From Promethearchaeota archaeon (GTDB taxonomy: Archaea; Asgardarchaeota; Lokiarchaeia; Sigyniarchaeales; SOKP01), in the NCBI GenBank assembly GCA_048941265.1, contig JBHLNT010000074.1:1-19058 (forward strand): a stretch of 19,058 bases of DNA, in the 5' to 3' direction. Position 1 is the stretch's first letter. Every line of letters starts with the position of its first letter. Below are positions 1-19,058 of this stretch, one piece after another. The translations under genes were made by a program, and so were the position numbers. The notes beneath the pieces were generated by a model. That model saw only the letters and a list, made by a program, of their open reading frames with translations, did not search any database and had not been told where the DNA came from.

Positions 1-145
1 AATCATTATTTTTGTTGACTATATAAACTATATAGATCTAATAAAATATATAGATAAAATATATAATATATAACGATCCCATTTAATAAAAGAATAATAG
101 AATATAATATCTTAAATTAAGACTAGATCAAAGAGGAGGTTTTAT

Positions 146-1186: not shown

Positions 1187-1431
1187 CTTTTTTTAAAAAA
1201 AATTTATTATTTCAATATTTAACACTTTTTCTTATTTGGTTAAATATAAGAATTTAAAATATTATTATGTTGACAGATCGGTTGATTATCTATTTCATTT
1301 AATATGGTAAATATATAAAATATATATACTATATAAGAAACTCCTTAAAGACTAATTGATCTAATTTTAAATAATAACTATTTGAAAAATTATCAAAATT
1401 ACACATTTGATATTCATAGGATTTCAATGAA

Positions 1432-2493: not shown

Positions 2494-2599
2494 AAAACAG
2501 ATATTCTTTTTTTCTCATTTTTTGAATTTTTTTGACAATGTTTTAATTTTCATTTTAGCGATTTATATTAGAAATAATTCAGGTTTAAAGTTTCTTTAG

Positions 2600-3703: not shown

Positions 3704-3886
3704 TGAACATTCACACTTTTCTTATTTCTTTTAATGTAATTTTGTGAAAATTTATATTTATAATTTAACAGATTATAGATAGAATAAAAAATTTTTACGA
3801 ATCTAATGCCTATATAAATAGGAATAAATTCATAAAATCCATAGATTTTTCAATACTATGGTTTGAATTAAAAATATTATTTATAA

Positions 3887-4327
3887 TTGATCAAAATGGA
3901 AGATGGTCTTTTAAAAGAATTACTCAATGTTGAGGATTCCATTGAATTAAAAGTAAGATTTAATGATATAGACGCTATGGGAGTAGTCCATTTCAAAAAA
4001 TATTTGGAATATTTTGATGATGGTTTTATAAGTTTTATGAATAATATACAAGATCCTCTAGCCGCTGAAAACCTACTTAAAAGTGGAATTGTATTTCCTG
4101 TCAAAAAAGTTAATATAGAATATGAAATATCTGCTGAATTTGGAGATCATGTAATCGTAAAAACACATATAAAAAATATTGGAGAAACATCGATTTCTTT
4201 TTTTCATGATATTTATCGTGAATCTGATAATGCTTTATTAGCGAAAATAATATGTGATAGATATATAATGGACTTAAAATCTAATAAATTAATTAATGTC
4301 AAGCAATTTTTTAGTAAATTTGTTTAA
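3887..4327 (+). CDS. Acyl-CoA thioesterase, 4HBT/YbgC hotdog family
   Basis: VRFNDIDAMGVVHFKKYLEYFD matches the YbgC/4HBT signature; length 146 aa. Confidence 0.88.
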   Translation: MIKMEDGLLKELLNVEDSIELKVRFNDIDAMGVVHFKKYLEYFDDGFISFMNNIQDPLAAENLLKSGIVFPVKKVNIEYEISAEFGDHVIVKTHIKNIGETSISFFHDIYRESDNALLAKIICDRYIMDLKSNKLINVKQFFSKFV

Positions 4328-4372
4328 ATAAATCTAAGCAATGAGTAAAAAAATTAATAGAACGAGCTAATA

Positions 4373-5026
4373 TCACGCATTTTTGGGAGGAATAATTCTA
4401 TTGATTAATTGTCTTCCGCATTCAGTAAAACTTCGATAAACGTTTTTTCTCATATCATATAGAGCACAAGTCTCATAAATTATAGGATTATAATTATGTA
4501 ATTCATTACCAAGTTCAAACCAAAGTCCCTCATCTTTAAGGACTTGTAAAAATTCTGCCTCCCCGATAACATCTTTGAGATCTTGTTTATTCAACATCAC
4601 AATCAAAGGGAGTTCTTTTATTAATTTACCTTTTGCGATATTTTTTAATTCTTTTAATGCTTCAATGTTATCTTCAAAAAATTTAGTCTGGGAATCAACA
4701 ACTAAAATAACTCCATCCGTTCCAAGAAAGATTTTCTCTCTTAAAGCGGAAAAGCTACTTTGCCCGGCAACTGTCCAAATGTGATAAAAAACTTGTCTTT
4801 GTTTTTTAGATTGAAAAACACCTCTGTCAAAATATAGAGTAGCTCCGCTTGCTCTCTCAATCTTTGTTAGAGTCCCCACTGGAATAACATCCTTGTTTTG
4901 TTCTTTTGTTAATCGATACAGGGTATCAACTATGGTTGTCTTTCCAGAACTATGCATCCCCCAGTAGAGGATTTTTATATATATTTTATTATCTTCCGTT
5001 ATTTGAACCAAATTATACCTCACCAA
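4373..5026 (-). CDS. Small GTPase, MglA/Arf-like (probable true start TTG at 5011)
   Basis: G1 GMHSSGKTT, switch I TLYFD, MglA-type G3 TVAGQ, G4 NKQD, G5 TCAL. SD-like GGTGAGG lies 6 nt before the TTG at 5011. Confidence 0.88.
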   Translation of the reverse strand: MVRYNLVQITEDNKIYIKILYWGMHSSGKTTIVDTLYRLTKEQNKDVIPVGTLTKIERASGATLYFDRGVFQSKKQRQVFYHIWTVAGQSSFSALREKIFLGTDGVILVVDSQTKFFEDNIEALKELKNIAKGKLIKELPLIVMLNKQDLKDVIGEAEFLQVLKDEGLWFELGNELHNYNPIIYETCALYDMRKNVYRSFTECGRQLINRIIPPKNA

Positions 5027-5268
5027 TTGGGGACAAAAGTTTCGAGGAGACCATTAACTTTTTGATGATAATGGGCTTTTTGGTTTTACACTCCTCATAT
5101 CTAATTGTACAATAATAATCAATCTTAGATATAATTAATATTGCTCTCTGATATTTATAACTTATTCTTTAAGAAATTAGATATTTCTCATTTAGAATCG
5201 TTGAAATATTTTTCATAGAACTCAATAATTTTGACAATCCTTTATAAGCTTATAAAAAAGAAAGAGAT

Positions 5269-6378
5269 TTAATTCGTCGTGATTTTCGGGGGTGGAACAT
5301 ATACTTCTCTATTTCCAGTTCTCTTTAAATTAATAGCACTCTCAGGACAATGATGAGCACACACCCCACATCCAATACATTTATTTATATCGACAACAGC
5401 AATGGTATCTTCTAAATCTATTGCTTCCATGGGACATTTTTCAACACAGGTTCCGCAACCTATACATTCTGAATCATTTACTTGTGCTAAATAACTGGTA
5501 TAACAATGATATGGTGAGATCCCTCCATAGTACATTTGAAAAATACCGCAACAACATTTACAACAATTACAGATTGCTTCTTCTTCTAATTCTGGTTTTA
5601 AATGTACATGAAACGCCTTATGTACAAGTCCCTCATCTTCAGATAATTTTAAAATCCTTTTTGCTTCATCTTTGCCGATGGGTTCTCCAAATTTATGCTC
5701 AATTACAAACTGTGCACTTTTACCAAATAATAGGCAGTTTGTCCTTTCTTGCGTGATTTTACATGGATCATCTAAAAGATCTTTTTCATGTCGACAATAA
5801 CAATGAGTATAAGCAATATCTTCATATTTATCTATGATTTTTGACACTTCTTCATATGGAAGGATTTGTTCTTCTGGAAGTTCTTCAATTTTCTCTTCAA
5901 CAGGGACAATTCGAGTTACAGGTGGAAAATTTTTAAATCCTTTCACAACAGTTTCATAGTTTTTCTGTGTCACCTCACTCATTCCTCTAAATAATTTGTC
6001 GAACGCTTTTGCTAATTTTTTTTGTTTCTCTCCTGTTTCTCCCCTATTTAATGTATATTCAAACATTCCAGGGAAAGGACCAAGAAGGCGATAAACTTTT
6101 ATCCCTGTTCTTCTACTAGTTGTACCAACTACAATTCCACCATCCATTAAATCATTTAACATCGTATTTAAGGAAGTATCATCCAAATCAATCTTTTCTT
6201 TTACTTGATCAATGCTTAAGCTTGGTTTTCTATTAAATACTTTAATAATAAATTGAGCTTGTGGTTCTGTCATTATTATTTGTAATAATTCAATAAGATT
6301 CTCATTAATTGGCATTGGCATTTGACCTGCTTTAGCAACAGTTCTTGCTGCTTTATACCATAATTGCTCCTCAGACAT
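5269..6378 (-). CDS. 4Fe-4S dicluster ferredoxin-domain protein with extra Cys cluster
   Basis: C-terminal CIGCGTCVEKCP and CIGCGVCAHHCP; central CYCRH and ICNCCKCCC motifs. Confidence 0.88.
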   Translation of the reverse strand: MSEEQLWYKAARTVAKAGQMPMPINENLIELLQIIMTEPQAQFIIKVFNRKPSLSIDQVKEKIDLDDTSLNTMLNDLMDGGIVVGTTSRRTGIKVYRLLGPFPGMFEYTLNRGETGEKQKKLAKAFDKLFRGMSEVTQKNYETVVKGFKNFPPVTRIVPVEEKIEELPEEQILPYEEVSKIIDKYEDIAYTHCYCRHEKDLLDDPCKITQERTNCLLFGKSAQFVIEHKFGEPIGKDEAKRILKLSEDEGLVHKAFHVHLKPELEEEAICNCCKCCCGIFQMYYGGISPYHCYTSYLAQVNDSECIGCGTCVEKCPMEAIDLEDTIAVVDINKCIGCGVCAHHCPESAINLKRTGNREVYVPPPKITTN

Positions 6379-6587
6379 TTTTTATCCTTTATTTAGTAAT
6401 TTTCGAAATTAAAATTGTTGCCATAATAAAATAAGCATAATTTAATTATCTTATGTAAGAGTTTAGTAAGAAAATAATAGAATTCAGTCGGACTTGAAAA
6501 ACCAAAAGTAAATTAAGTTTAAAAATACATACATCTAATATTTAAAAAACAAATTCGATTTTTTAAAAAATATTTTAGGTATTTAAT

Positions 6588-7979
6588 ATGGAGAATATTG
6601 TACATTCAAAAAGTAGTATGGCATCCTATGGATGTGCTAAAGCATTGAATGAATTTTTCAATATGGCATTTATGGCTTTTGGTTTCTTTTTTTATGAGAC
6701 AGAGATTGGTTTAAACGTCTGGTATGTTGGACTTGGCTTTATCATCTTTGCTATATGGAATGCGATTAATGACCCTCTAGTGGGATATTTAACTGATCGT
6801 CCATTCAAATTTACAAGGAAATTGGGTAGAAGATTTCCATGGATAATGCTCGGAGGAACTTGCTGGATCTTTAGTTATATTCTCATCTTCATTCCACCTA
6901 ATGTCAATCCAAAATCAGGAGCTTGGATCATATTTTCATGGCTCGTTGCTGCTACTTGTCTTTATGATTTATTTGCTTCAATATTTTTTGTGAATTTTGC
7001 CGCTCTTTTCCCTGATAAGTTCCGTTCAGTAGAAGAACGCAGGAAGGTTAACGCGATCGCTACCCCAATAGGAATTTTGGGCATTGTCACTGGAGGAATT
7101 GTACCACCGCTTTTTATTGAATTTGGAAACACCACTTCGTATATTATCCAAGCGGGTATGATGATTATTATTGCTCTCATTATTTTAGCGCTCTCTATTC
7201 CTGGTTGCCGTGATGAAAAAGTAATTGTCGAACGCTACCTCACAACATTTGAAACAAGGAAAGTAGAAGAAGAGTCATTTTTTAAGTCCTTAAGAGTTGC
7301 CATGAAACAAAAATCCTTTGTGTACTTTATCCTTGCATACCTTTGTTATCAAACTACTACAACGCTTATGCAAACATCTGTTTCTTATGTTATACGATTT
7401 ATTTTAAGATTGCCGGCAACTTCCATGATTTTTATAATGTTAGCACTTCTTGTAGGAGCAGTTATTTCTATTCCTATCTGGATATATTTAGCAAATAAGA
7501 CAAATGACAATAGAAAAATAATAATGACCGCTGGAGCATTGATGGTGATAGCTACAGCTCCATTGATATTCCTAGATAATTATATTGCCATTATTATCGC
7601 AATGTTTCTATGGGGTTTATGTTTCGGAGGTTATTGGGTAATGTTAGCACCTGTTTTAGCTGATGTGATTGATGAGTCCGTAGTAAGAACAGGTAAACGC
7701 GAAGAAGGTGTATATAATGGATTTCAGCAATTCTTTGGGCGCCTTTCTTTTCTCTTTTCTGCTCTTTCCATTGCAATAGTTCATACACTCACAGGATTTA
7801 AAGAAGGAGCTAAACCAGAAGCTCAAACTACTCTCGCAATAATCGGAATTCATATCCATTTTGGGTTAATCCCGATGCTTTTTATGATTGTATCTGTTTT
7901 CCTCTTATGGAAAGGGTATGACCTAGTTCCAGAAAAAGTAAAAGCCAATCAAGAAAAAATCAAGGAAATGGGTCTTTAA
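6588..7979 (+). CDS. MFS transporter, glycoside-pentoside-hexuronide (MelB/GPH) family
   Basis: About 12 hydrophobic segments; WNAINDPLVGYLTD, GRRFPW, LADVIDE and KREEGVY motifs. Confidence 0.9.
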   Translation: MENIVHSKSSMASYGCAKALNEFFNMAFMAFGFFFYETEIGLNVWYVGLGFIIFAIWNAINDPLVGYLTDRPFKFTRKLGRRFPWIMLGGTCWIFSYILIFIPPNVNPKSGAWIIFSWLVAATCLYDLFASIFFVNFAALFPDKFRSVEERRKVNAIATPIGILGIVTGGIVPPLFIEFGNTTSYIIQAGMMIIIALIILALSIPGCRDEKVIVERYLTTFETRKVEEESFFKSLRVAMKQKSFVYFILAYLCYQTTTTLMQTSVSYVIRFILRLPATSMIFIMLALLVGAVISIPIWIYLANKTNDNRKIIMTAGALMVIATAPLIFLDNYIAIIIAMFLWGLCFGGYWVMLAPVLADVIDESVVRTGKREEGVYNGFQQFFGRLSFLFSALSIAIVHTLTGFKEGAKPEAQTTLAIIGIHIHFGLIPMLFMIVSVFLLWKGYDLVPEKVKANQEKIKEMGL

Positions 7980-7998
7980 ATAAAAACTTAATATCTAA

Positions 7999-8020
7999 AT
8001 CTTTTTTTTTCTCTTTTTCC
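7999..8020 (+). terminator. Oligo-T archaeal terminator candidate after the MFS gene
   Basis: T-rich tract (cttttttttt ctctttttcc) about 20 nt after the stop codon. Confidence 0.4.
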
Positions 8021-8140
8021 TTATAAATTATTAACTATATTAAGTAAAAAAATATATTTTCTAGGATTAATATTAAAAAGATGCTATTATAATGGTTCAA
8101 TTTAATTTAACCGTTCAAAAAAATATTAGTTTGAGATACT

Positions 8141-9202
8141 ATGAGATATATTGAATATCAAATTGTTATAGGGGATTCCCCCCCTGGAGTAATGCTTAAT
8201 GATTTAAGAAATTTAGCGCATGTTGAATATTATGTATCAGATGAAATACCTACTGAAAAGGATATTGAACAAAATCAAAAGGCTTTATTTCCGAAAGGTA
8301 TTATCCACCACCTTCCCCAAGAGAGTTATGTTTGGAATTTTTCATTAGTGTATAGGGAAGAAAATTTTGATATAATCAAATGGAAAACTTCATTTGCTTG
8401 GAAAACAATCGATAAAACTGGTGATTACAATCAAATTGAAGCTAATAAGGCTTTATTTATTGGAGCCACTGCAGGAATATTTTTTATTATGATAGATGAG
8501 GAAATTTATGAGAATTTTAATAAACTTGCAGATATGATGGACATTTTTATAGAAAAAACTGATGAAAATGCCCCATTTATAGTATACGGATTGATTGAAA
8601 ACAAGCAAAAAGTTGCGGAATTAAAGGAAAATGAAGAATTATTAAAAAATGTAGCAGATGTTAAAAAATGGGTTACCACTCACAAAGGTGAATTTCGTAT
8701 GGAAATTTTAAAAGAGATTAAATCTAATCCAATATCTCTTATCAATGATTATTCTCATTTTATTCTTACAGCACGAAAATCCTATTATCCTAAGCTTAAA
8801 TTAGGTGAAGTTCATTATTTAGATTATGATGATTTAATCGCATGGAAAGGAATTGAAAATTCATTAGTAGAGCATACTGATAAAAATCAAACAATTGATC
8901 AACTAATTTTTAACTATTTAAAAAATATTGATTTCCAAGAGGAAAAAATTGAAACCATTACTGCCGTGAAACTCCAAGATGATAAACAACCTCTAAAAGA
9001 TGTTATCGAACCTCGTCCCTTAAAAATGAAGAAAATCATTAAAGAAATTCAAAAAACAATTAGACGAACTTGCCCCAATTGTGGAAATAACAATCGTAAA
9101 ATGATTCGTGAAGTAATAGATAGAGAGAATATTATTATGGAAAATCCCAATGTCTATGGTTTGAAGTTTACGTGCGGTAAATGTGGTTTCGAGTGGAAAT
9201 AA
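8141..9202 (+). CDS. Hypothetical protein: probable degenerate small-GTPase-like fold plus C-terminal Zn ribbon
   Basis: IVIGDSPPGV in a P-loop-like position; ALFIGATAGIFFI...ENFNKL...APFIVYG follows the Rab beta4-alpha3-beta5 pattern. C-terminal CPNC...CGKC zinc ribbon. Confidence 0.6.
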   Translation: MRYIEYQIVIGDSPPGVMLNDLRNLAHVEYYVSDEIPTEKDIEQNQKALFPKGIIHHLPQESYVWNFSLVYREENFDIIKWKTSFAWKTIDKTGDYNQIEANKALFIGATAGIFFIMIDEEIYENFNKLADMMDIFIEKTDENAPFIVYGLIENKQKVAELKENEELLKNVADVKKWVTTHKGEFRMEILKEIKSNPISLINDYSHFILTARKSYYPKLKLGEVHYLDYDDLIAWKGIENSLVEHTDKNQTIDQLIFNYLKNIDFQEEKIETITAVKLQDDKQPLKDVIEPRPLKMKKIIKEIQKTIRRTCPNCGNNNRKMIREVIDRENIIMENPNVYGLKFTCGKCGFEWK

Positions 9203-9278
9203 TTCTTTAATGCAAAAAATTTTTGAAAGCTTTTGAATCTCTATAAAACGTGGATTAAATAGTTCTAGTTGCACATCA

Positions 9279-10016
9279 TTAAGGTTTAAATCTCCAGAAT
9301 CGATTCATCTGACCGTAATAGTCAAATAATGCATCTATACCCCTAATTTTAAGGTCAGTGTTGAGGCAAATTTTATTATGAAGAGCTCCTTCAGCAGGTA
9401 TCGCGGCAATCTCAGTAGCCAGTTTGTTAACTTCTTCTTCAAGTTTATCTCGAGGAACACTTATACTCACAAGTCCTATTTGTTCAGCTTCTTTTCCATT
9501 TATTCTTCTACCACTCATTAAAAGGTAACGTGCTTTTTTGACACCTAAATAAAGTTGCCAAAGAGGCATGCTTTGAGCCCCGCCCCATAACTGGGCAGGG
9601 TGTCCTAATATAGCATCTTCTGCCGCTACAGAGATATCGCATAGAAGCTGAAGATAACATCCCGCATCTGTACAATAACCATGAATTTGAGCTATAGTTG
9701 GTTTTGGGAAATTGAATATTCGTGGATATTTCGCATAAATTTTTTTATTTAGTATCTCATAGGAATTTTTATATTTCCAACCTCCTTCAGGTGGTATGAT
9801 ATAGTAGGATTCCTTAAGATCAAAACCTGAGCAAAAACTTTTACCGGCACCCTTTAACACTATTACTTTTGCCTTATTATCTGCTTCGGCATGATCAAAA
9901 ACGGCGTCTATGTCATCAAGTAACTGATAACTCAGAGCATTATGTTTTTCTGGTCTATTTAAAGTTATATATCCAATTTTCTTTTTTGATTCATAAAGAA
10001 CAGTTTCAAACTCCAT
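9279..10016 (-). CDS. Enoyl-CoA hydratase/isomerase (crotonase) family protein
   Basis: ITLNRPEKHNAL, FCSGFDL, PKPTIAQIHGYC, EAEQIGLV. SD GGGTGA precedes ATG at 10016; the ORF track extends to 10052. Confidence 0.88.
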   Translation of the reverse strand: MEFETVLYESKKKIGYITLNRPEKHNALSYQLLDDIDAVFDHAEADNKAKVIVLKGAGKSFCSGFDLKESYYIIPPEGGWKYKNSYEILNKKIYAKYPRIFNFPKPTIAQIHGYCTDAGCYLQLLCDISVAAEDAILGHPAQLWGGAQSMPLWQLYLGVKKARYLLMSGRRINGKEAEQIGLVSISVPRDKLEEEVNKLATEIAAIPAEGALHNKICLNTDLKIRGIDALFDYYGQMNRFWRFKP

Positions 10017-10187
10017 TTTATCACCCATTATTTTTTTATTTATAACTAACATTATCTCTCAACATATTTAAAAATTTGACAAACAGAAAGAGAATGATTG
10101 GATTATGAAATGGAAAAAAATTAGTATTCAAAAAATTTTTAAAAGTTAATTAATGATTAAGCTCACACTTTTTTAAAACTTATATTA

Positions 10188-11378
10188 TTGTTATTGGTGT
10201 TGAATATAAGAGTAAAATTTGCTGAAAGAATAGGTAGGCTGCCACCATATATATTTGCCGAAATAGAGCAATTAAAATTAGAAAAAAAAAAGCAAGGAAT
10301 TGATTTAATCCCGTTAGGTATTGGGGATCCTGATTTGACAACTCCAGAATTAATCCTAAATGAGCTTATTGAACAAGTTAAAGTTCCTGAAAATCAAAAT
10401 TATCCAACTAGTGCCGGAGAAGAGTTCTTTAGAGAAGCCGTGGCTAGATGGTGTAAAGTGAGATATGGTCTAAATTTAGATTTAAACAGACAAGTCACAA
10501 ACGTACTTGGAGGAAAAGAAGGAGTGGCCAATATTGCTAGGGCGTTTGTTAATCCTGGAGATATTGTTCTTTGCCCAAATCCGGGGTATCCTGTATATGA
10601 AAATGGTGCTACTAAATTATGTGATGGAAATCCTTACGTAATGCCATTAAAAAAAGAAAATAATTTTCTTCCTGATTTAGAAGCTATTAGCACAAAATTT
10701 CTGAAAAAAGCTAAATTTATGTATTTAAATTATCCAAACAATCCTACTGGGGCTATTGCATCGATGGATTATCTCAAAAAGGCAGTAGATTATGCTGAAG
10801 ACTATAACTTTTTTATAGTGTACGATAATCCCTATTCTGAATTTACTTATGGCGATTATATTGCTCCTAGCATACTGCAAATTAGTCAAGATCATCTTGA
10901 AATTTATAGTGCATCAAAAATGTTTAATATGACAGGCTTTAGGTGCGGATGGGCAATAGGAAACGCAGAAATTATTGATGGATTAAGAAAAGTGAAATCT
11001 CAAATAGATTCAGGTTGTCCTATATTTATCCAAAAAGCAGTCGTGAAGGGTTTAAACGAATATTCTTCAGAGAAGAAACCTGAGATTGTTGCAAAAACAA
11101 TGGAAGTTTATGAAAAGCGCAGAGATATATTTGTCGATGGTCTAAACAAAATGGGATGGAAAACTGAAAAACCTCAAGCAACTTTTTATATTTGGACGCA
11201 AATTCCAGAGGGAGAGAAAAATAGCATGGAATTTGTTAAAAAGTTAATAGATGTAGGAGTAGTTCTTACCCCTGGAATAGGTTTTGGTGAATATGGGGAA
11301 GGTTTTGTACGAATTGCCTTAACTCAACCAATTGAAAGGTTACAAGAAGCATTAATAAGAATAGAAAAAGTCATTTAG
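10188..11378 (+). CDS. dapL: PLP-dependent class I/II aminotransferase, probably LL-diaminopimelate aminotransferase
   Basis: LPPYIFAEI, LGIGDPD, NYPNNPTGA, YDNPYSE, PLP-lysine motif SASKMFNMTGFRCGW, TPGIGFGEYGEGFVRIAL. Substrate is inferred from family resemblance. Confidence 0.7.
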   Translation: MLLVLNIRVKFAERIGRLPPYIFAEIEQLKLEKKKQGIDLIPLGIGDPDLTTPELILNELIEQVKVPENQNYPTSAGEEFFREAVARWCKVRYGLNLDLNRQVTNVLGGKEGVANIARAFVNPGDIVLCPNPGYPVYENGATKLCDGNPYVMPLKKENNFLPDLEAISTKFLKKAKFMYLNYPNNPTGAIASMDYLKKAVDYAEDYNFFIVYDNPYSEFTYGDYIAPSILQISQDHLEIYSASKMFNMTGFRCGWAIGNAEIIDGLRKVKSQIDSGCPIFIQKAVVKGLNEYSSEKKPEIVAKTMEVYEKRRDIFVDGLNKMGWKTEKPQATFYIWTQIPEGEKNSMEFVKKLIDVGVVLTPGIGFGEYGEGFVRIALTQPIERLQEALIRIEKVI

Positions 11379-11400
11379 TACTTGTTAGAAAATTTTTCAT

Positions 11401-11586
11401 TTATTTGGATTTTTGTTTATATTTTTTCCATAGAAATCCCATTCGAATTTCCTCCTCTATTTCGATTTCTGCTGGCACATTATCAGACATATCGAATATA
11501 TTTATATAAGAAAACTCATTAAATGGTTTATCTTTTTCTTTTTCTTCTTTTTCATAAAAATCGGCTGTTAGTTCCATATAGACCAA
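11401..11586 (-). CDS. Small hypothetical protein (58-61 aa), acidic with basic C-terminus
   Basis: ORF track. Shares F-x-Y-x-N-x-F-D-x(6-7)-A-E with the neighbouring 45-aa ORF. Alternative ATG at 11577. Confidence 0.6.
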   Translation of the reverse strand: MVYMELTADFYEKEEKEKDKPFNEFSYINIFDMSDNVPAEIEIEEEIRMGFLWKKYKQKSK

Positions 11587-11819
11587 AACTTAATATTTTT
11601 TTAAAAAATAAAGCTAAATTTGCTGTTCAAATAACGTTATAAATTAAAAGTTAAACCAATTATATAAATCTTCTGATTAAATTATCTGAATAGGTATATA
11701 AATAAATCTGAATAATAAAATAAATAATAATTCTTATATATACCATCCAATTCTAGAAAATTTACATAATCAATAATATTTTTTTGAAACTATGGAAAAT
11801 AAATACAATTTCTAATTTA

Positions 11820-11957
11820 TTACCATGCTATTTCTTTATCAAAAAGATGACATTCAGCAGATATCGGAAATTTAGTAGTATCAAAAAAGTTACTATAATC
11901 AAATGGCTCTTCAATGATTTCCGGCTTAATAATATCCTCTTCACGAATGGTGGTCAT
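11820..11957 (-). CDS. 45-aa microprotein MTTIREEDIIKPEIIEEPFDYSNFFDTTKFPISAECHLFDKEIAW (not in ORF track)
   Basis: Hand translation; strong SD AAAGAGGTG ending 4 nt before ATG; motif shared with 11401-11586. Confidence 0.7.
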   Translation of the reverse strand: MTTIREEDIIKPEIIEEPFDYSNFFDTTKFPISAECHLFDKEIAW

Positions 11958-12184
11958 TCTACACCTCTTTTCTGTTTTAATTTTTTATCGATTTTAGACC
12001 TCTCAGCAGCAAATTACTCGAATATGACCACTTTCAAATAAATCACACGCGCCAAGCAAACAAATCCGTGAAAAATTTATAAGAAAGAGGTTAGATTCGC
12101 TTGCTTGATCTATAATACTACTACTAGTACTAATACGCCTAAAACGCGTAACAATGTATTTGATGTAGTAGTATTCGAAGTCAT
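11958..12184 (-). ncRNA. Candidate structured cis-regulatory leader RNA (three hairpins, closing stem, anti-SD)
   Basis: Perfect 11-bp stem 12114-12124/12165-12175. 15-bp stem 12053-12067/12093-12107 whose three mismatches are G.U only on the minus strand. G.U-rich stem 12022-12029/12041-12048. Begins about 25 nt downstream of a TATA box. Confidence 0.6.
12110..12184 (-). CDS. Putative leader peptide/uORF MTSNTTTSNTLLRVLGVLVLVVVL (24 aa)
   Basis: ATG at the predicted transcription start (leaderless), TAG at 12110-12112; 5 Thr, 6 Leu and 6 Val codons. Confidence 0.45.
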   Translation of the reverse strand: MTSNTTTSNTLLRVLGVLVLVVVL

Positions 12185-12208
12185 TATTATAAAATATTAT
12201 ATAATAGT

Positions 12209-12224
12209 TTTATATAAACTTTTT
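12209..12224 (-). promoter_or_regulatory. Archaeal BRE-TATA promoter (AAAAAG-TTTATATAAA)
   Basis: Purine-rich BRE-like run directly followed by a consensus TATA box, about 25 nt upstream of the structured leader/uORF. Confidence 0.6.
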
Positions 12225-12271
12225 GTTATTTTACGTAAGGTTAAAAGTATTGAGTATGTATATTAGTTTCA

Positions 12272-12457
12272 TTAAAGCAATGTGTATAATTTTATTATCC
12301 TTGATAATTTATCATCAACATCGTGCTTTAACTCAATAATTCCCTTTTTAGTTTTTTTATAATAATAAAGCAATTTGTCATATTCTTCCTTTTGCTTAGA
12401 GAGCGATACTACCTGGTAATCAAGCTCGTTTTTATCAATTTTAATTGCGATATTCAA
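12272..12457 (-). CDS. Small hypothetical, likely helical/coiled-coil protein (61 aa)
   Basis: ORF track; GAGGGAAG RBS-like sequence shortly upstream of TTG; same orientation as neighbouring microproteins. Confidence 0.55.
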   Translation of the reverse strand: MNIAIKIDKNELDYQVVSLSKQKEEYDKLLYYYKKTKKGIIELKHDVDDKLSRIIKLYTLL

Positions 12458-12528
12458 GTTAATCTTCCCTCAGTTCTATTCTTTTAAATTTTAAATTATA
12501 TATTTTAGAAAATATATTTAAATTAGGA

Positions 12529-12708
12529 TCAAAAACTTTTAATTTTCCAGTTTCTCATAAAATCTTTGAAATATTTATCTGAAATTCCAAGCGAATTGAT
12601 ATTTACATCGTTATTATTTATTTTATTCCTAAAATTTTCCTTTTGAATTTGATCTGTCTTTTTTCTGAAAGTTAATTGCCAATCAAAAAAAGAATTTGGT
12701 TTTGACAT
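12529..12708 (-). CDS. 59-aa microprotein MSKPNSFFDWQLTFRKKTDQIQKENFRNKINNNDVNINSLGISDKYFKDFMRNWKIKSF (not in ORF track), paralogue of 12909-13088
   Basis: Hand translation; gapless alignment with the upstream ORF gives 24/59 identities. Confidence 0.8.
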   Translation of the reverse strand: MSKPNSFFDWQLTFRKKTDQIQKENFRNKINNNDVNINSLGISDKYFKDFMRNWKIKSF

Positions 12709-12908
12709 TGATTTAAAATCGAATTTACATTTTTGATAAAATAATAAAATTAGTTTATAAACAACTTTGTTTTCAAAGTTAATATTCGTACTAAAAGAAC
12801 GGATTTTTTACGGAAATGTTAAATCGTAATTTATTATTTAAAAACCTTTATTTAGAGTGATTTGGAACAAATAATTCGATTTAAATGAAGGAAAATAAAT
12901 TTATGTGG

Positions 12909-13088
12909 TTAAAGATTTTTTTCTTTCCATTTTTTCATAAAATTTTTATATATATTCTCATCAATTCCAAGAGAATTAACTTCTTTTTTATTTGTTATTC
13001 TCATTATCTTAATTTCGGAATTGTGATTTAATTGAGACTTTTTACGAAAATCCAATTCCCAATCAAAATAAGAAAGTGCTTTTGACAT
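12909..13088 (-). CDS. 59-aa microprotein MSKALSYFDWELDFRKK...NSLGIDENIYKNFMKKWKEKNL, paralogue of 12529-12708
   Basis: ORF track gives 13094; the ATG at 13088 aligns with the paralogue start. Conserved blocks SxFDWxLxFRKK and NSLGI...KxFMxxWK. Confidence 0.8.
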   Translation of the reverse strand: MSKALSYFDWELDFRKKSQLNHNSEIKIMRITNKKEVNSLGIDENIYKNFMKKWKEKNL

Positions 13089-13166
13089 GATCAAAATACT
13101 ATCTTATTCAACTATAAATCCCAAGAGGGTAAAAATTTTCTAATACCTAATTTTTAGGGAATATTC

Positions 13167-13176
13167 AAAAAAAAAA
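13167..13176 (-). terminator. Oligo-T terminator candidate after polB2
   Basis: Run of 10 T on the minus strand about 30 nt after the polymerase stop codon. Confidence 0.5.
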
Positions 13177-13205
13177 CCTGAATCAAAATCTTAAACCATT
13201 CGGAA

Positions 13206-15611
13206 TCAACTTAAATAACATGAAAGGTCTTTTTGACTCGATTTTCGATTAGCACGAGACTTCAATCGCTCTTCAAGTTCAGGAAACTCAAATGGGAATA
13301 TGTTTTGAAACGCCCTTTTTAATAACTCAATGTATTTTTTTTTATCGTACTGATGTTTTTTCTTGTCATACCAATCTGAAAGGATTACTTTCTTCTCTGG
13401 AAAATCGGGATCTGCCTCTGCATTCAAAATAATATATCTAACATTTTTTCCGGGAGTCGCCATGAATCCCGCTTGTTCTAATTGTTTTGCAGCCACTGCC
13501 TGATAGGAGTTTACCTTATATTTCGAAGGAGTTCTGGAGATTCGTTGACGAATAGTGAGTTCATCCTTTGAAATTTTGCCACTTTCAATTTTATCAGCAT
13601 ATTTGAAAAGGGTTTTCACAGCATTAGGTATTGTTTCCATGAATTCCTTTACAGAAGTTGCACTTTTAAAGATATCTATAAAAGCATATTGAGCTTTTTT
13701 GACTATTTTAGGGATATCTCTTCGTCGCACCTCAATTCCTCTTACCTTCGTTTCACCATCAGCTTTAATGCCCCAATAATGACTGAGAGCTGGAACATTA
13801 GGTTCTGCTTGAGAAGGAAGAAAAACAATGATATTAAATCTTCCCTCCCAGCTCATAGGAATATTTGTTTCCTCGGTGATTCGATTGGCAATTTCTTTTG
13901 TTACTCTTTCGAATTCTTCGGGAGATCTCCCTAAAGTATCTTGAATATAGATCGAATCCACAATTCCATGAATAATTCGACATCCATAGAATTCTGCTAT
14001 CTCTGCTGTGCGCATAATGAATTCGCGAGCAAATGCACAAACCGTTTGATGTGCTTCAATTTTTCCGAATCGAGCGTTTTTAAATCCTAGATACCCAAAG
14101 CTTACCACGAGCACCCATTTTAGCGCTATGTCAGTGAATTTATATCTGAGATCCCCAGTCCTTCTTACATGTTTCTTGCATTGCAATCTTTTGGTCAATG
14201 GTAAACTAATCGACTTTGAAATTATGCCTTCTCTTTTTGAACATATGTGAAAATTTAATCCTGGCACTTTTATACCCGTTCCATCATCTTTGCAACATTT
14301 GCAATTAATAGTTTCTGAAGAAATATTATAATTTGCCATTAAAGAGGGATACATTGAAGAGAAATCTAGTTCGACTACTTGATCGAAAACCCCGATTAAT
14401 GGCTCGAATATATGTCCCCCTCGATCACCTCTGATTAAATCAATACCATTCCGAAATCCTTCAGGACTTTTCTTAAAAGGAGGGATAAGATGATCAAGTT
14501 TATAGGCGTTATAGTATTGGATTGATTGAAGTGCACCGCCAATTGTAATTCTACATAATCTTTGTAGCGGCACTCGAGAGATGCGAGCAACTTCAATCAC
14601 TCCAGGAATGTTTCCTTCGCTAAAATGCAAGCTCCCGTAGGTTGTTGTGTCCAAATGGAATCGTCCAGTAAAATACACTTGTGTTTTTGATCGTCGTCTA
14701 ATTATTCCGTAGGACATATAATGATCTGAACCTCCTGAAAGCTCAAAAATGCAGTTCTTTAACGGTGTTTTTGTTCGAGAAAGATATAACTCCTTCGATA
14801 CATGATTTACTGACGCTCGAGCTGCCAGATAGGGGAAAATAAACTCATCACCGCCTTGTGTAAGAATAATGTCAGGATCGCGTTTTTCGATTAACTTACT
14901 GATTGCCTTTAAAGTCTCTGCTTCATCAGCTTCATCGATAAGAATCTTCCTTCTTCTTAGCCCATCGGCTCGAGGGATGTTGTTTCGCTTGTCTTTTTCA
15001 ACAATACTAATTTCAGCATAAGCAAGCGGATCATTGTAATAAGATCTGAGTCCCCGCTGCTGGATTTTTACATCGAGCCATACAGCCTTAAGAGGAGGTA
15101 AATCGTAAAACAGTTTCTCGTTGTCATCTTTAAGCTCAAACGAGATCAAGCTCATTTTGATGCTTTTATCTTGCTTGTCTTTTTCAATTTTGACCTTAAA
15201 GCTACAAAAAGACATAGGGAATAAATCATTTATATAAAAATACATCTGAGAGATTGGTAAGTCAGTGTTATACAACGTAAAATGACCAATTTCGTCAATT
15301 TCTTTAATGACCTTTTTGAATTCTGAAGGTTTTGATACAGACACACCAAAAATTTTTGTTTTTTTATGATCCTCCAACCTAACAAACTTCTCACAAACCC
15401 TTACTTTTTTTACGTTAGGATGCGCCTCGATAATACTTTTTAATCTCTTCAAATCACTACCAATATTCTTCTTTGGAACAGCAAAAAATTCGGGGTAGAA
15501 TTCTTGAAATATCTCCAAGATCCTTTTCTCCCTTTTTATCCAAAGGATTATTCCATCGCTACACGTTGAAACATCTAAAAGCCAGCCATCAAATTGTTCG
15601 AAACAATCCAA
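13206..15611 (-). CDS. polB2: Family B DNA polymerase, archaeal PolB2 group (degenerate exonuclease)
   Basis: Motif A ELDFSSMYPS, motif B LKWVLVVSFGYLG, variant motif C HGIVDS instead of YGDTDS, KVRGIEVRRRD, degenerate Exo motifs (WLDVKI, TQGGDEFIFPYL), C-terminal PIP-like QKDLSCYL. Confidence 0.88.
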   Translation of the reverse strand: MDCFEQFDGWLLDVSTCSDGIILWIKREKRILEIFQEFYPEFFAVPKKNIGSDLKRLKSIIEAHPNVKKVRVCEKFVRLEDHKKTKIFGVSVSKPSEFKKVIKEIDEIGHFTLYNTDLPISQMYFYINDLFPMSFCSFKVKIEKDKQDKSIKMSLISFELKDDNEKLFYDLPPLKAVWLDVKIQQRGLRSYYNDPLAYAEISIVEKDKRNNIPRADGLRRRKILIDEADEAETLKAISKLIEKRDPDIILTQGGDEFIFPYLAARASVNHVSKELYLSRTKTPLKNCIFELSGGSDHYMSYGIIRRRSKTQVYFTGRFHLDTTTYGSLHFSEGNIPGVIEVARISRVPLQRLCRITIGGALQSIQYYNAYKLDHLIPPFKKSPEGFRNGIDLIRGDRGGHIFEPLIGVFDQVVELDFSSMYPSLMANYNISSETINCKCCKDDGTGIKVPGLNFHICSKREGIISKSISLPLTKRLQCKKHVRRTGDLRYKFTDIALKWVLVVSFGYLGFKNARFGKIEAHQTVCAFAREFIMRTAEIAEFYGCRIIHGIVDSIYIQDTLGRSPEEFERVTKEIANRITEETNIPMSWEGRFNIIVFLPSQAEPNVPALSHYWGIKADGETKVRGIEVRRRDIPKIVKKAQYAFIDIFKSATSVKEFMETIPNAVKTLFKYADKIESGKISKDELTIRQRISRTPSKYKVNSYQAVAAKQLEQAGFMATPGKNVRYIILNAEADPDFPEKKVILSDWYDKKKHQYDKKKYIELLKRAFQNIFPFEFPELEERLKSRANRKSSQKDLSCYLS

Positions 15612-15613
15612 TT

Positions 15614-15898
15614 CTATTCTTTTCCATTTATTTTTTCTTCCAGTTCCTTAACCTTTCTCTCTAACATCTCAATTTTCTTCTCCTGCTCAATAGCAAAAGA
15701 CATGAAAAGAATTTCAGAAAGCATGGGTCTCGCACTTAAACTCCCCGCATCAGCATGAATTCGCGCGAAATTCATTAACTTATTCAAAATGTCTTGCTCG
15801 TGAGGACGAAGTGCCCTTTTAAAATCTTTCCAGCTTTCTATTTCATGTTCCAAGGCAGGACGAAAAGAAGGTACCGTGCGACCCATAATAATAACCAA
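15614..15898 (-). CDS. PolB2-associated small helical protein (arCOG07300-like); probable ATG at MGRTVPS
   Basis: MGRTVPSFR...WKDFKRALR...ARIHADA...EQEKKI pattern typical of the gene preceding polB2; stop codon 2 nt from the polB2 start. Confidence 0.75.
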   Translation of the reverse strand: MVIIMGRTVPSFRPALEHEIESWKDFKRALRPHEQDILNKLMNFARIHADAGSLSARPMLSEILFMSFAIEQEKKIEMLERKVKELEEKINGKE

Positions 15899-15970
15899 AG
15901 AGATTAGTTAATTATCAATTTTAAAAGGGATTAGATCGAGAATTTTCTGATTTTCAATGATGTTCCTTCA

Positions 15971-17059
15971 TTATGTAAAGAATTGACTAATTAGGTTATC
16001 GGCTTTCCCGAACGGTTTTAATTGACCATTCCAATCCTCAAGATTCTCTCCTCCGAATAGTTTTTCAAATGATAAATGAAACATCTTTAACCGATATTTA
16101 AATTCGGAAAAAAGGCTTGATGTGATTAATATACATAATGTAGATATTCCATGAGAAAAGATTATATTTTTATCTCCGTGCGATATTTCTTTAAGATAAC
16201 CATTGCTAGATAAAATCTCTCTTAATATAACGTCAAATCCGCCAAATGCTCCGCTTATTAAATCTCCCTCTATGCTAATTTCTGATAATTTGAACTCATA
16301 ATGGTATATTAACCTAGATGATTTAAGATGGATTACTAAAAGGCGCTCCAACTTTACCATCCAATCTAGTTCGGATAAACTGGGTAATTTACTCCACGTC
16401 CATGTCATTAAAAGGCCTCCCACAATGATTAAGAGGCTGTTTATAACTAAAATATTCCAAATACCAAAATAGTAGAGGAATATATCAACCATTAAAAAAT
16501 TTGAAAATCCCACTAAACTTAAACCAATATAAAACAACTCTATGATTTTTGAACGTCTTATAATTTCAAAGGACCTGTATTTATTTAAAAATATTTTCGT
16601 AACCATTATCACAGGTACAACTATAAAAATATAAACAAAAACAATAGTAATAATATGAAAATACACAAGGAAACCTAAAAAAGGTGCTCCTATACCTGTA
16701 ATAATGGAGAGTAGAAAGACATTTTTTTCTTTTTCTTTAATAGAACCATGTAAATATTCGTCTAACTCTGTAAAAAATATAAAGCAATACATACCACATA
16801 AAAATAATGCGTTAATTACTATATAATACATTAAATGAGGTAACAGTTCAGGATATAAATGGGGAAATGCCATTAAATAATGAAAAAGCGCTTGGGTTAT
16901 AAGAAAGATTCCAAAACCGGTGGTTGTTGATAAAATGCTGGTTTCCCTTATTTTTTTCATTACTTGAAATGCCATAAAAAAAATGATAAGTACCGCAAAA
17001 AATCGTAATAAAAGAATTATATCGCGATTAATCCCGTATTCAATGATTTGAAGAAGCAT
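15971..17059 (-). CDS. Multi-pass (about 7 TM) membrane protein with C-terminal longin/roadblock-like domain
   Basis: About seven hydrophobic segments in residues 10-225, then LLVIHLKSSRLIY...DLISGAFGGFDVILREI...LKEISHGDKNIIF...FHLSFEKLF with longin-like beta-beta-alpha-beta-beta-beta-alpha pattern. Confidence 0.65.
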   Translation of the reverse strand: MLLQIIEYGINRDIILLLRFFAVLIIFFMAFQVMKKIRETSILSTTTGFGIFLITQALFHYLMAFPHLYPELLPHLMYYIVINALFLCGMYCFIFFTELDEYLHGSIKEKEKNVFLLSIITGIGAPFLGFLVYFHIITIVFVYIFIVVPVIMVTKIFLNKYRSFEIIRRSKIIELFYIGLSLVGFSNFLMVDIFLYYFGIWNILVINSLLIIVGGLLMTWTWSKLPSLSELDWMVKLERLLVIHLKSSRLIYHYEFKLSEISIEGDLISGAFGGFDVILREILSSNGYLKEISHGDKNIIFSHGISTLCILITSSLFSEFKYRLKMFHLSFEKLFGGENLEDWNGQLKPFGKADNLISQFFT

Positions 17060-17213
17060 AAATAAACTTGATATCGACCATCTGTTTGATTTATTTGAAA
17101 AAGTTTACTCTTATAAATCTATCTTAGTAAATTTAAAATATTTTTTAGAGATTCTAAATCTATTTTAACTATATCTCAAATATATTATAATAAGAATCTT
17201 CGAAGTTATAGGA

Positions 17214-17582
17214 ATGAAGGTTATGGCATATAAAATAATTGATTCGCTTTGTTATGTACCGACTGAGGAGGTTTTTATTGATTTATTGGTATCATTGCCT
17301 CCTCAAATGTCAAGATATTTAAAGGATGTATTTGATCCGAGAGTTGCTCCATTATTAGGTATAACTGCTGAAGAGCTTTATAACATGAAAATGTCTCTTA
17401 GTCCACATGAGCTTAGAAAAGCTGTTGAGCCTTTTTTGCCGAAGATTAGAAGATTAACGATGACGGTAGAAGAATTTGTAATACAACTTAATAAAATGGG
17501 AGTAGAAAAAGCGGTAATTTTTAATCTTGATGAACAAACACCAAGTGGAATAGCAGGACTTCCTAATGACTATTATAAATAA
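17214..17582 (+). pseudogene. N-terminal fragment of an amidohydrolase_2 (TIM barrel) family protein
   Basis: IIDSLCY start motif and MGVEKAVIF...PNDYY, then a stop at 122 aa followed by AT-rich sequence with no evident continuation. Confidence 0.55.
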
Positions 17583-17696
17583 ATTTCTTTTTGGATATAT
17601 TAACATTTATTTAAATTTAATAATTTAATTTCAAAATAAAAACAGTTTTAAAACCTCTAAGCGAATAATTAATAAAATACAAATAGTGCATTATTT

Positions 17697-18113
17697 ATGA
17701 GCGAAGATTTAAAAGAGTGGCATGCCCCTTGCGGGATTTACTGTAAAAGATGTCCTGGCGTGAAATTTTATAATTGTAAAGGATGTCGAGAGCAAAAGGG
17801 ACAAGTTTATAAGCTTCCTTTATGCAAAACTTATGAATGCGTGACAAGCAAAGGACATGATTTCTGTTATGAATGTGAAGATTTTCCGTGCGAAATGCTC
17901 CAGCCGATCGTGAATTTTGAGATATTTGCTCCTCACAATTCAAAAGTATATAATTCAATCATGATACAGAAGCTAGGATTAGATGAGTGGGATAAAATAT
18001 GCGAAGAAAAAACCACACTTTATTATCAGGGAAAAAAGGTTCAATATGGTGGAGATCTTCTTACCTTAGAGAAGAAAGATCCTAAGATGTACAAAAAGAA
18101 AAACAACAAATAA
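17697..18113 (+). CDS. DUF3795-like Cys-rich (Fe-S/Zn-binding) protein
   Basis: APCGIYCKRC...CKGCR...C...C...FCYECEDFPC pattern. Confidence 0.8.
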   Translation: MSEDLKEWHAPCGIYCKRCPGVKFYNCKGCREQKGQVYKLPLCKTYECVTSKGHDFCYECEDFPCEMLQPIVNFEIFAPHNSKVYNSIMIQKLGLDEWDKICEEKTTLYYQGKKVQYGGDLLTLEKKDPKMYKKKNNK

Positions 18114-18120
18114 AAACAAA

Positions 18121-19058
18121 TTAAATTATTATCTCTAAAAATTCATCGATTACTTCAGCTGTTCGATCAATTCTTCCCGATTTTTTAAGTTCTCTACCAA
18201 GGATATACGTATCAATTTCTAAAAAATCTAGACCAATTAATTCACATTTTTTTAATTCCATGAATGCCTTAATCACTCTTGCAGCATTCAAAATCAATTC
18301 TTTTTCAATACCTATAACATTCATAAATCGAGCTGCAAGAATTTCTTTAAATATCCCTACATCTACATCAAATGAGATGTAAACATAAGGCACTTTGTAC
18401 TCTTCTAAAGATTCTTTTAATTTCTTTACCATATCATTTTTATCATTTATTCCAGAAATAATTTTTGCGCCCTTCTCCTCAAAGAATTGATAATACTCTA
18501 CAAATTTCTTTACCCTTGAATCGTCTATAGAGCGATATTCCTTGCTAGGATAATCTTGACAACCAAAAACAATCAAATTTTCTGGTAATATAGTCCCATC
18601 TTGAATTAAATAATCCAAGAAAGAAGCACATGAATAGCTATCTTTTAATATAATAGAATTAACATCCATAGAGTCGAGTAATCCAGGAGAAAGTACATGA
18701 ATTTCCTTTTGATGTTCTTGCATATATTTTACTAAGTCTAACGAGACTTGAGCAGGAATAGCATCGAAGTGAGCGTCAAATATTACTATTAATATATTTT
18801 CCGGTCCATACTTCTTCGAAAGAGCACTCAAAACCCCCCCAGTTAAAGAATGATCCACCCCAATCATTAAGGGTATATCTGGTAATACTTTTCCTATAAC
18901 AAAATTCTCTAACTTTTTAGAAAGTGTTCTCACTGCCCCACTATTTACATATTCTTGATATTTAAAAGGATCCAAGAGAGGATAATCTTCAATATTAGGT
19001 TTAGGAGTTAACCAAGACTCGATTGAAAATTTCCCTATTTTGATATATTTTTCCTTAT
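18121..19058 (-). CDS. Arginase/ureohydrolase family protein, 5' end outside the window
   Basis: GVDHSLT, DAHFD, SFDVD and DFLEI motifs. The frame stays open from 18975 to the window edge (..KEKYIKIGKFSIESWLTPKPNIEDYPLLDPFKY). Confidence 0.8.
   Translation of the reverse strand, partial: KEKYIKIGKFSIESWLTPKPNIEDYPLLDPFKYQEYVNSGAVRTLSKKLENFVIGKVLPDIPLMIGVDHSLTGGVLSALSKKYGPENILIVIFDAHFDAIPAQVSLDLVKYMQEHQKEIHVLSPGLLDSMDVNSIILKDSYSCASFLDYLIQDGTILPENLIVFGCQDYPSKEYRSIDDSRVKKFVEYYQFFEEKGAKIISGINDKNDMVKKLKESLEEYKVPYVYISFDVDVGIFKEILAARFMNVIGIEKELILNAARVIKAFMELKKCELIGLDFLEIDTYILGRELKKSGRIDRTAEVIDEFLEIII

Follow-up and report, generated by a model that had tools for sequence, protein, structure and literature searches.

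A candidate ribosome-mediated attenuator for branched-chain amino acids in mRNA leaders of Promethearchaeia

The locus and its relatives

The stretch analysed here, referred to as the window, comprises 19,058 nucleotides (nt) of a Promethearchaeota archaeon of the class Lokiarchaeia (assembly GCA_048941265.1, contig JBHLNT010000074.1, positions 1 to 19,058). It contains a structured mRNA 5′ leader in front of an open reading frame (ORF) for a 45-residue protein, and all of the window elements described here lie on the minus strand. The region 11379–13205 (1.8 kb) holds no long ORF. In the order of transcription the leader presents a TATA-like box, a short leader ORF, a hairpin (stem B) whose loop carries a CU-rich tract, two purine boxes (P1 and P2), and the ribosome binding site (RBS) and start codon of the 45-residue ORF. 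An earlier note, made from the letters of the window, had proposed that the loop of the hairpin is an anti-Shine-Dalgarno element which pairs with this RBS and switches translation of the 45-residue protein. Comparison with related copies leads us to a wider reading, which we favor with moderate confidence: the leader would be a ribosome-mediated attenuator that responds to branched-chain amino acids (BCAAs).

The genome to which the window belongs is 5.0 Mb in 361 contigs and is 91% complete. BLAST found relatives of the hairpin region in 19 of 61 related genomes (the matches L025, L028, and L029 were short and spurious and were discarded). A covariance model built from stem B and its flanks (R1) was positive in 75 of 135 family genomes; a second model (R2), built from 81 hits, located the element in 110 of 126 genomes of one family of Promethearchaeia (f1) and in 0 of 24 genomes from six other families of the same class. 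A genome may carry up to four copies. The window’s own genome has three (contigs C351, C41, and C266), and on C41 a second copy of the hairpin region stands upstream of the gene for leucyl-tRNA synthetase (LeuRS). The genes that the element would control encode LeuRS, an FrhB-like protein, a class IV aminotransferase, an acyl-CoA dehydrogenase, and small proteins of two families without known function. A scan for bacterial promoters returned promoter-like sites no more commonly than in shuffled sequences.

A leader ORF whose codon run matches the downstream gene

Three features define the 5′ part of the leader in the window:

12211–12218, minus strand: TATA-like box TTTATATA, 34 to 27 nt upstream of the leader ATG, with an A-rich stretch before it
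12110–12184, minus strand: leader ORF of 24 codons plus TAG, product MTSNTTTSNTLLRVLGVLVLVVVL, with homologous ORFs in other copies
12113–12136, minus strand: codon run GUA UUA GUA CUA GUA GUA GUA UUA (V L V L V V V L), reaching to the last sense codon

The box is a recurrent feature: the best match to TTTAWATA starts 35 to 31 nt before the leader ATG in 61 of 79 copies, and at −34 in 40 of them. In archaea the usual distance from TATA box to start places the beginning of the transcript. Applied to the position of the box, this spacing implies that the transcript would start a few nt before the leader ATG, making the leader ORF near-leaderless.

The ORF of 20–31 codons opens at an ATG inside the conserved sequence AAUAAUGA and is present in all 81 model hits and in 19 of 20 further hits (100/101). 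In the remaining copy, L188, a frame with a TTG start that ends in IIVVIIL can be made out by eye. The encoded peptides share a conserved N terminus, M(I/T)SN(N/K)T, and have a very hydrophobic C-terminal half; leucine, valine, and isoleucine account for a mean of 6.5 of the last eight codons, and for at least five of them in 79 of 81 copies. The position of the stop codon relative to the following structure is fixed: in all 81 copies its end falls in the interval from 2 nt ahead of the first pair of stem B (as in the window) to 4 nt inside it.

As compared across copies, the codon tails follow the downstream gene. In leaders of LeuRS genes (n = 56) leucine occupies a fraction of 0.67 and isoleucine 0.00 of the last eight codons, whereas isoleucine takes 0.43 in front of FrhB/FdhB-like iron-sulfur proteins (n = 14), and valine takes 0.52 in the group of the 45-residue ORF and 0.58 in front of acyl-CoA dehydrogenases (n = 3); class IV aminotransferase copies have mixed Ala/Val/Leu tails. 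The gene classes in this comparison were assigned by rough regular expressions (n = 100), which mis-binned the window, L004, L005, and L098 and placed one LeuRS copy in the aminotransferase class. The Val/Leu codon run is likely to be the sensor in the window, and we hold with high confidence that the family senses through a leader peptide.

A variant leader occurs in L196, L200, and L207, where the peptide ends in ..VKPV.IRSIIKRE and has no hydrophobic run. In L200 and L207 it precedes ORFs of 52–57 residues that end in ..KLGYLRKKYSKS and are relatives of a 61-residue family, one member of which also lies in the window (below).

Hairpin A and two competing folds

RNAalifold applied to MAFFT alignments produced no usable consensus, likely due to misaligned arms and to the presence of two competing folds, and the structures were therefore set by hand and their pairs counted. 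Co-variation between pairs of segments was assessed by a partner-swap test, with 105 segment pairs screened over 68 copies; the other 13 of the 81 were left out of this and of all tests that involve the main start, their start being uncertain or their locus truncated. Two signals of the screen were discarded, P2:linker on account of overlapping windows and start5:seg3 on account of tiny energies. Related sequences are not independent, and all of the p values given here are inflated. The structural elements are as follows:

12114–12175, minus strand: hairpin A, within the leader ORF (outer helix 12175–12165/12124–12114, inner helix 12155–12146/12138–12129)
12093–12108, minus strand: seg2, the 5′ arm of stem B, directly after the stop codon; shows co-variation
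12082–12095, minus strand: CU tract (the anti-Shine-Dalgarno of the earlier note), top of stem B and 5′ part of its loop
12052–12067, minus strand: seg3, the 3′ arm of stem B (GGAUUUGUUUGCUUGG), which becomes the apical loop of Alt
12024–12035, minus strand: purine box P1, GAAAGUGGUCAU, the conserved partner of the CU tract, with a tail (12031–12024) complementary to the main start
12003–12108, minus strand: Alt, a long alternative hairpin with a 5′ strand made of seg2, the CU tract, and the remaining loop sequence

Hairpin A has the codon run as its 3′ arm, so that the regulatory codons pair with the ORF’s own 5′ codons. The two arms change together between types, ACU ACU AC with GUA GUA GU in valine types and AAU AAU AAU with AUU AUU AUU in leucine types; the number of UAC triplets in the 5′ part of the ORF correlates with that of GUA in the 3′ part (rho 0.72), the leader ORF has a folding z score below −2 in 64 of 81 copies, and the partner-swap test for the hairpin gives p = 7e-10.

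These properties bear on two readings in which the leader ORF is not a sensor. It could encode a functional hydrophobic micropeptide (a membrane peptide or a type I toxin) on an mRNA with ordinary hairpins, as the very hydrophobic C-terminal half and the conserved N terminus might suggest. However, which hydrophobic residue is used (Leu, Val, Ile, or Ala) varies with the gene that follows, the run codons have their RNA-level complement in the conserved N-terminal codons, and the element always stands ahead of another gene at a fixed distance, all of which make the micropeptide explanation extremely improbable. Alternatively the ORF could be incidental to a translation-independent riboswitch or a T-box-like tRNA sensor, given that the leader is structured, bistable, and, like T-boxes, found upstream of an aminoacyl-tRNA synthetase gene. 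A search of the whole window against Rfam at gathering score gave no match, and a permissive search of 11380–13210 only five matches at chance level (E of 1.9 or more), which also leaves the riboswitch option of the earlier note unsupported. The ORF is moreover kept in 100 of 101 copies with gene-matched codon runs, its stop codon is fixed within 6 nt relative to stem B, and its N-terminal codons change with the run codons in a way that preserves hairpin A. We consider a sensor that works independently of translation very improbable.

Stem B is well supported. The main helix accounts for 13 of its 15 pairs; double-sided changes occur at 11 of these positions, and the paired share of cells is 96.4% in an alignment fitted to B. 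In an unfitted MAFFT alignment of 56 copies the value is 90.8%, compared with 26–57% when the arms are slid against each other, and the partner-swap test gives p = 3e-9.

In Alt, the 3′ strand consists of 12051–12036, P1, and seg5 (12023–12005); the fold has an energy of −22.8 kcal/mol in the window. Its 35 pairs, counted on an unfitted alignment of 56 of the 81 copies that leaves the window’s own subtype outside, are 77.5% paired, versus 42–54% when slid, with 94 double-change cells, a number reached by 0 of 500 shuffles. The partner-swap test, which includes the window subtype, yields 2e-6 for seg2:seg5, 9e-6 for CU:P1, and 7e-5 for the remaining loop and post segments (loop:post). For CU:P1 the co-variation lies at the flanks of the duplex, as at pair 53:170 (UA 31, CG 18, UG 14), where P1 was outside the structure of the model; in the window this duplex has an energy of −9.2 kcal/mol. 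In 80 of 81 copies Alt has a lower energy than B by itself, with a median difference of 9.5 kcal/mol, and it is the minimum free energy (MFE) fold of the leader in 69 copies, with B in the other 12, the window among them. According to these comparisons stem B and Alt are co-varying folds that share seg2 and are predicted to be mutually exclusive, and it is highly probable, in our judgment, that they form the two states of a switch.

At the loop position facing P1 (pair 60:167, about 12086/12031 in the window), UG (31) and UA (29) prevail over CG (11). As U·G is kept over C–G here, selection may act on the uninterrupted U-run of the loop as such, which could serve, for instance, to pause the polymerase or to signal termination. 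A hairpin formed by seg2 with upstream sequence, which could have acted as a terminator together with the loop U-run, was considered and rejected, seg2 being mostly unpaired in the nascent RNA (mean probability at most 0.3 in 76 of 81 copies).

The unconstrained fold of the window additionally pairs the first leader codons, GACUUCGAAUA (12184–12172), with UAUUCGAG (12023–12014) just after P1. This pairing was not seen by eye in L007 and L008 and may be local.

The loop CU tract and its partners

The 3′ part of the leader, to which the earlier note had drawn attention, contains the following:

11997–12004, minus strand: purine box P2, GAGAGGUC, the “decoy” of the earlier note; shows no co-variation with the loop
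11958–11973, minus strand: RBS region of the 45-residue ORF, with the Shine-Dalgarno (SD) sequence GAGGUG at 11967–11962
11950–11957, minus strand: start codon and the following 5 nt, AUGACCAC, the perfect complement of the P1 tail GUGGUCAU (12031–12024)
11820–11957, minus strand: the regulated 45-residue ORF (MT..PAE..IAW), of no known family, aligned with 15 homologues

The elements were correctly placed in that note: UCUAACCUCUUUCU occupies 12095–12082, with 12095–12093 at the top of stem B and 12092–12082 in the loop, AGAAAAGAGGUGUAGA lies at 11973–11958 directly before the ATG at 11957–11955, and a second GAGAGGU is found at 12004–11998. The duplex between the CU tract and the RBS also exists on paper, with an RNAduplex energy of −12.4 kcal/mol, although it comprises 12 base pairs (bp) and one bulge rather than the 14 bp and two bulges that had been described. 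Only 35 of 38,084 16-nt segments from both strands reach this energy; these fall into four distinct sites, namely the RBS site itself, the antisense copy of the tract, and two elsewhere. The match thus exceeds what chance would give. At its core the loop reads ACCUC, identical to the core of the 3′ end of 16S rRNA, GGAUCACCUCC (read in the relative G077; 16S rRNA was sought in the window’s own genome and in G001 and not found), and the loop will therefore match any strong SD. Such a match is what one would expect of an anti-SD-like tract facing a strong SD. The SD of the 45-residue ORF has an energy of −9.7 kcal/mol with the anti-SD.

In the window itself, several observations favor the CU tract as an anti-SD that pairs with the RBS at 11973–11958, with 12004–11998 as decoy. 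The CU:RBS energy exceeds those of CU:P1 and CU:P2 (−9.5 kcal/mol), only two unrelated matching sites occur in the 38 kb scanned, and the loop core is that of the anti-SD. With a ribosome placed on the leader stop codon, a CU:RBS duplex of about 10 bp is predicted, and the unpaired fraction of the SD is 0.19, compared with 0.60 when the ribosome is stalled. In the homologues, however, the pairing is not kept. CU:SD is stronger than CU:P1 in just 5 of 68 copies, with mean duplex energies of −5.9 and −11.7 kcal/mol, respectively; the two closest relatives (86–88% identical) have CU:SD values of −8.0 and −8.7 kcal/mol, weaker than their own CU:P1. The tract shows no co-variation with the RBS (partner-swap p = 0.27 and 0.42). 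The decoy can pair with the loop (−9.5 kcal/mol), and a GAGAUC-like box recurs by eye at its place in homologues, yet it does not co-vary with the loop either (p = 0.089). Among 63 copies folded under state constraints, more than one CU:RBS base pair forms in only 8, and the SD is weak or absent in copies with archaeal-type LeuRS, LeuRS genes making up most of the copies. As an account of the switch, pairing of the loop with the RBS therefore appears improbable, and in the window it is most likely a local by-product or add-on. The broader idea of a translational switch fared better: the system is attenuator-like, in that conserved pairings of the loop with downstream purine boxes exclude one another, and in the gene group of the window the translation start is apparently wired into it, but the conserved partner of the loop is P1, and the RBS is not a general partner. 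Absent from the earlier note are the leader ORF with its Val/Leu run and the 8-bp match of P1 to the start codon region. The 45-residue product, for which the earlier note had considered a type I toxin, is acidic and hydrophilic and matches no family, so a type I toxin finds no support.

The link to the start may instead pass through P1. The P1 tail forms 8 bp with the start in the window (−12.8 kcal/mol). Pairing of −6 kcal/mol or better is found in 9 of 15 copies of the 45-residue group versus 4 of 45 LeuRS-type copies, with a group mean of −6.9 versus −3.1 kcal/mol for shuffled starts (p = 6e-4), and L007 has a compensatory pair, AUGGUCAU:AUGACCAU. When B is forced in the 15 copies, the 3′ strand that is set free forms some 15 bp with the region of the start, leaving the AUG unpaired to 0.37, as against 0.58 with Alt forced (10 of 15 copies agree and 1 is opposite). 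Inclusion of the start region in the fold raises the number of these copies with B as MFE from 2 to 8 of 15. Over all 68 copies the start region is slightly more open in Alt (0.60 vs 0.52; 30 copies vs 3). Letters resembling (A)UGACC are found within the CU tract of many copies, so the tract looks like a mimic of the start region that would compete for P1. As the P1 tail is complementary to the start of the 45-residue ORF, it is more likely that the loop acts as an anti-sequestor than primarily as an anti-SD. Whether P1 controls this start in the window we judge to be evenly balanced.

Proposed mechanism and the output step

Comparison of the copies establishes the leader ORF with its biased codons, the two folds, and the complementarities, and these form the basis of the proposed attenuator. 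In bacterial footprinting, the RNA shielded by a ribosome extends about 12 nt beyond the A-site codon. With a footprint of this size, a ribosome that has reached the stop codon of the leader ORF or the codons just before it would melt the base of stem B, whereas the core of Alt needs none of the bases so covered. The supply of charged tRNA could thereby set how far the ribosome advances along the Val/Leu codons and how long it dwells there, and so shift the balance between B and Alt. In the gene group of the window, B would hold the CU tract and leave P1 free to cover the start (off); in Alt, the CU tract would hold P1 and the start would be open (on). Starvation would park the ribosome on the last hungry codons, destabilize B, allow Alt to form, and turn the gene on. 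The controlled LeuRS is the only one found in the genome of the window, and starvation should therefore turn it on. The part played by the ribosome, the polarity, and the output step we infer, and of these the polarity as stated is tentative; we put it at somewhat below even.

Several points weigh against this scheme. The geometry suits a classical logic just as well, in which a ribosome stalled further upstream leaves seg2 free to form B, with B as the on-state. Because stem B is masked to the same degree by a ribosome that terminates and by one that stalls on the final codons, the proposed polarity would have to come from dwell time alone. The lower SD accessibility predicted for the window with a ribosome at the stop codon has the opposite polarity. 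The P1:start pairing is weak or absent in 6 of 15 copies of the window’s own group and, among LeuRS-type copies, in 41 of 45; it is therefore not a family-wide output. In the 68 copies, co-variation of any segment with the SD or the AUG does not reach a level that withstands 105 tests, and in the 63 state-constrained folds the accessibility of the SD or AUG does not shift consistently from a stalled ribosome to one at the stop codon. The inflation of the p values and the exclusion of the window’s subtype from the Alt pair count, both given above, belong here too.

In LeuRS copies the output may be premature termination or processing, and the same sensor and switch could act family-wide in this way within the untranslated spacer of about 150 nt, using U-rich tracts and/or aCPSF1/FttA, with the start-region pairings incidental or a local add-on. 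Oligo-U tracts and FttA act in archaeal termination. Consistent with such an output, the loop has a T-run of five or more in 75 of 81 copies, the U·G wobble kept opposite P1 suggests selection of the U-run, and the arrangement of a 5′-proximal stem B that is less stable than Alt is the usual layout of a co-transcriptional switch; the family-wide lack of co-variation with SD or AUG and the missing P1:start pairing in LeuRS copies point the same way. Against it, a scan of 11300–13300 for bacterial-type terminators found none, T-runs of five or more occur within 28 nt after P1 in just 13 of 81 copies, and T-runs of four or more between stem B and P1 in just 22 of 81. The conserved U-run lies upstream of the 3′ arm of B, so neither fold exists when it is transcribed, and the near-constant distance from leader to start hints at a structural link to the start. 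Termination or processing as the general output is a possibility that we regard as rather unlikely. A more specific version, a BCAA “ribulon” in which the sensory ORFs and the B/Alt switch would gate termination or cleavage by aCPSF1/FttA (CPSF73-type) at the oligo-U/CU tract, with P1 masking the tract, is doubtful. If true, Rho-dependent attenuation would have an archaeal counterpart, located in those prokaryotes that are most closely related to eukaryotes, and functional transcription-translation coupling would be demonstrated in Asgard archaea.

Relation to known regulatory leaders

Attenuation by leader peptides is a textbook bacterial mechanism, known from amino-acid operons and genes with trp, his, leu, ilvGMEDA, and pheST leaders. 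The element described here resembles these attenuators in its short leader ORF with a run of codons for the amino acid tied to the gene under control (an aminoacyl-tRNA synthetase gene among them, a parallel to pheST), in the position of the stop codon at the foot of mutually exclusive helices, and in the use of one leader type for several genes of one pathway. It differs in its archaeal host, in that the regulatory codons pair with the 5′ codons of their own ORF in hairpin A and not with the next segment, in the lack of a conserved hairpin and U-run terminator, and in that stem B competes with a long hairpin into which its own 5′ arm and loop are taken up. With T-boxes it shares the same likely role, that of raising LeuRS when tRNA charging falls; unlike T-boxes, it has no Rfam T-box match and no features of translation-independent tRNA binding were seen, and a conserved leader ORF is present instead.

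In translational attenuation of ermC and cat, the signal is a ribosome arrested by a drug, and the last hairpin holds the SD. A chain of hairpins links the position of the ribosome on the leader ORF to exposure of the downstream start (summarized in 10.1101/834739). On that description, the present element would be similar in linking a leader ribosome to a downstream start by alternative hairpins and would differ in taking tRNA supply as its signal and in a predicted sequestor that covers the AUG, found in only 9 of 15 copies. The same source deals with leaderless short ORFs for polycysteine in mycobacteria, where stalled ribosomes are proposed to block RNA structure that hides a start, and where several loci share the design, termed a “ribulon”; this case concerns a bacterium and has experimental proof (Canestrari et al., 10.1101/834739). 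A tract of codons for a single amino acid and recurrence at several loci are common to both systems, and a (near-)leaderless sensory ORF probably is as well. In the mycobacterial system, the tract region helps to sequester the RBS, whereas a relay from B through the CU tract and P1 to the start is predicted here, for one gene group only. The amino acid is cysteine there and Leu, Val, or Ile here, and the Asgard case is a prediction from sequence comparison.

No example of leader-peptide attenuation in archaea, Asgard archaea included, was found in full-text searches of the literature available without subscription. The sensing principle is a known one, and what would be new is the domain of life and the different architecture. 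If the proposal is true, leader-peptide attenuation is family-wide in these uncultured Promethearchaeia (Loki-type Asgard archaea). It would offer a handle on how the position of a ribosome is read out in archaea, via translation or via transcription-translation coupling, with about 100 natural sequence variants supplied for testing, and would tie small proteins of unknown role to valine/leucine physiology.

Downstream genes and neighboring ORFs

The leader-controlled LeuRS of the window’s own genome (contig C41) belongs to the bacterial type, and no other LeuRS was found in this genome, which is 91% complete; ValRS (C34) and IleRS (C223) are without the element. In other genera the same kind of leader, with Leu runs, stands before archaeal-type LeuRS. 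The contrast is seen, for example, between the bacterial-type LeuRS of genus g1 (L002) and the archaeal-type enzyme elsewhere (e.g., L043), both behind the same Leu-run leader, and the leader seems to have outlived, or moved with, replacement of the LeuRS enzyme. The distance from leader to start is 132–166 nt in most copies and 195–199 nt in those with bacterial-type LeuRS. The 195–199-nt spacers of g1 LeuRS copies (L002, L017, and L022) hold a possible second short ORF (GUG/AUG AAA AAA ..) of about 15–22 codons, the position of which is conserved by eye and the sequence not clearly so.

Pfam assigned no family to the 45-residue ORF or to a 61-residue ORF downstream of it at 11401–11586 (minus strand), and ESM Atlas scores for these were under 0.9 and uninformative. 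The two (..F.PAE..I..(E/K)IAW at the C terminus of the former, ..PAEIEIEEEI.MGFLWKKY.. in the latter) may be distant paralogues, judging by their resemblance. In other genomes, too, members of both families follow the leader, and in L014 and L015 the 61-residue type comes directly after it. Two further small ORFs, at 12529–12708 (minus strand, 59 residues) and 12909–13094 (minus strand, 61 residues), lie between the leader promoter and the PolB gene and resemble each other, sharing the pattern ..FDW.L.FRKK....NSLGI...Y.(K/N)FM..WK.K...

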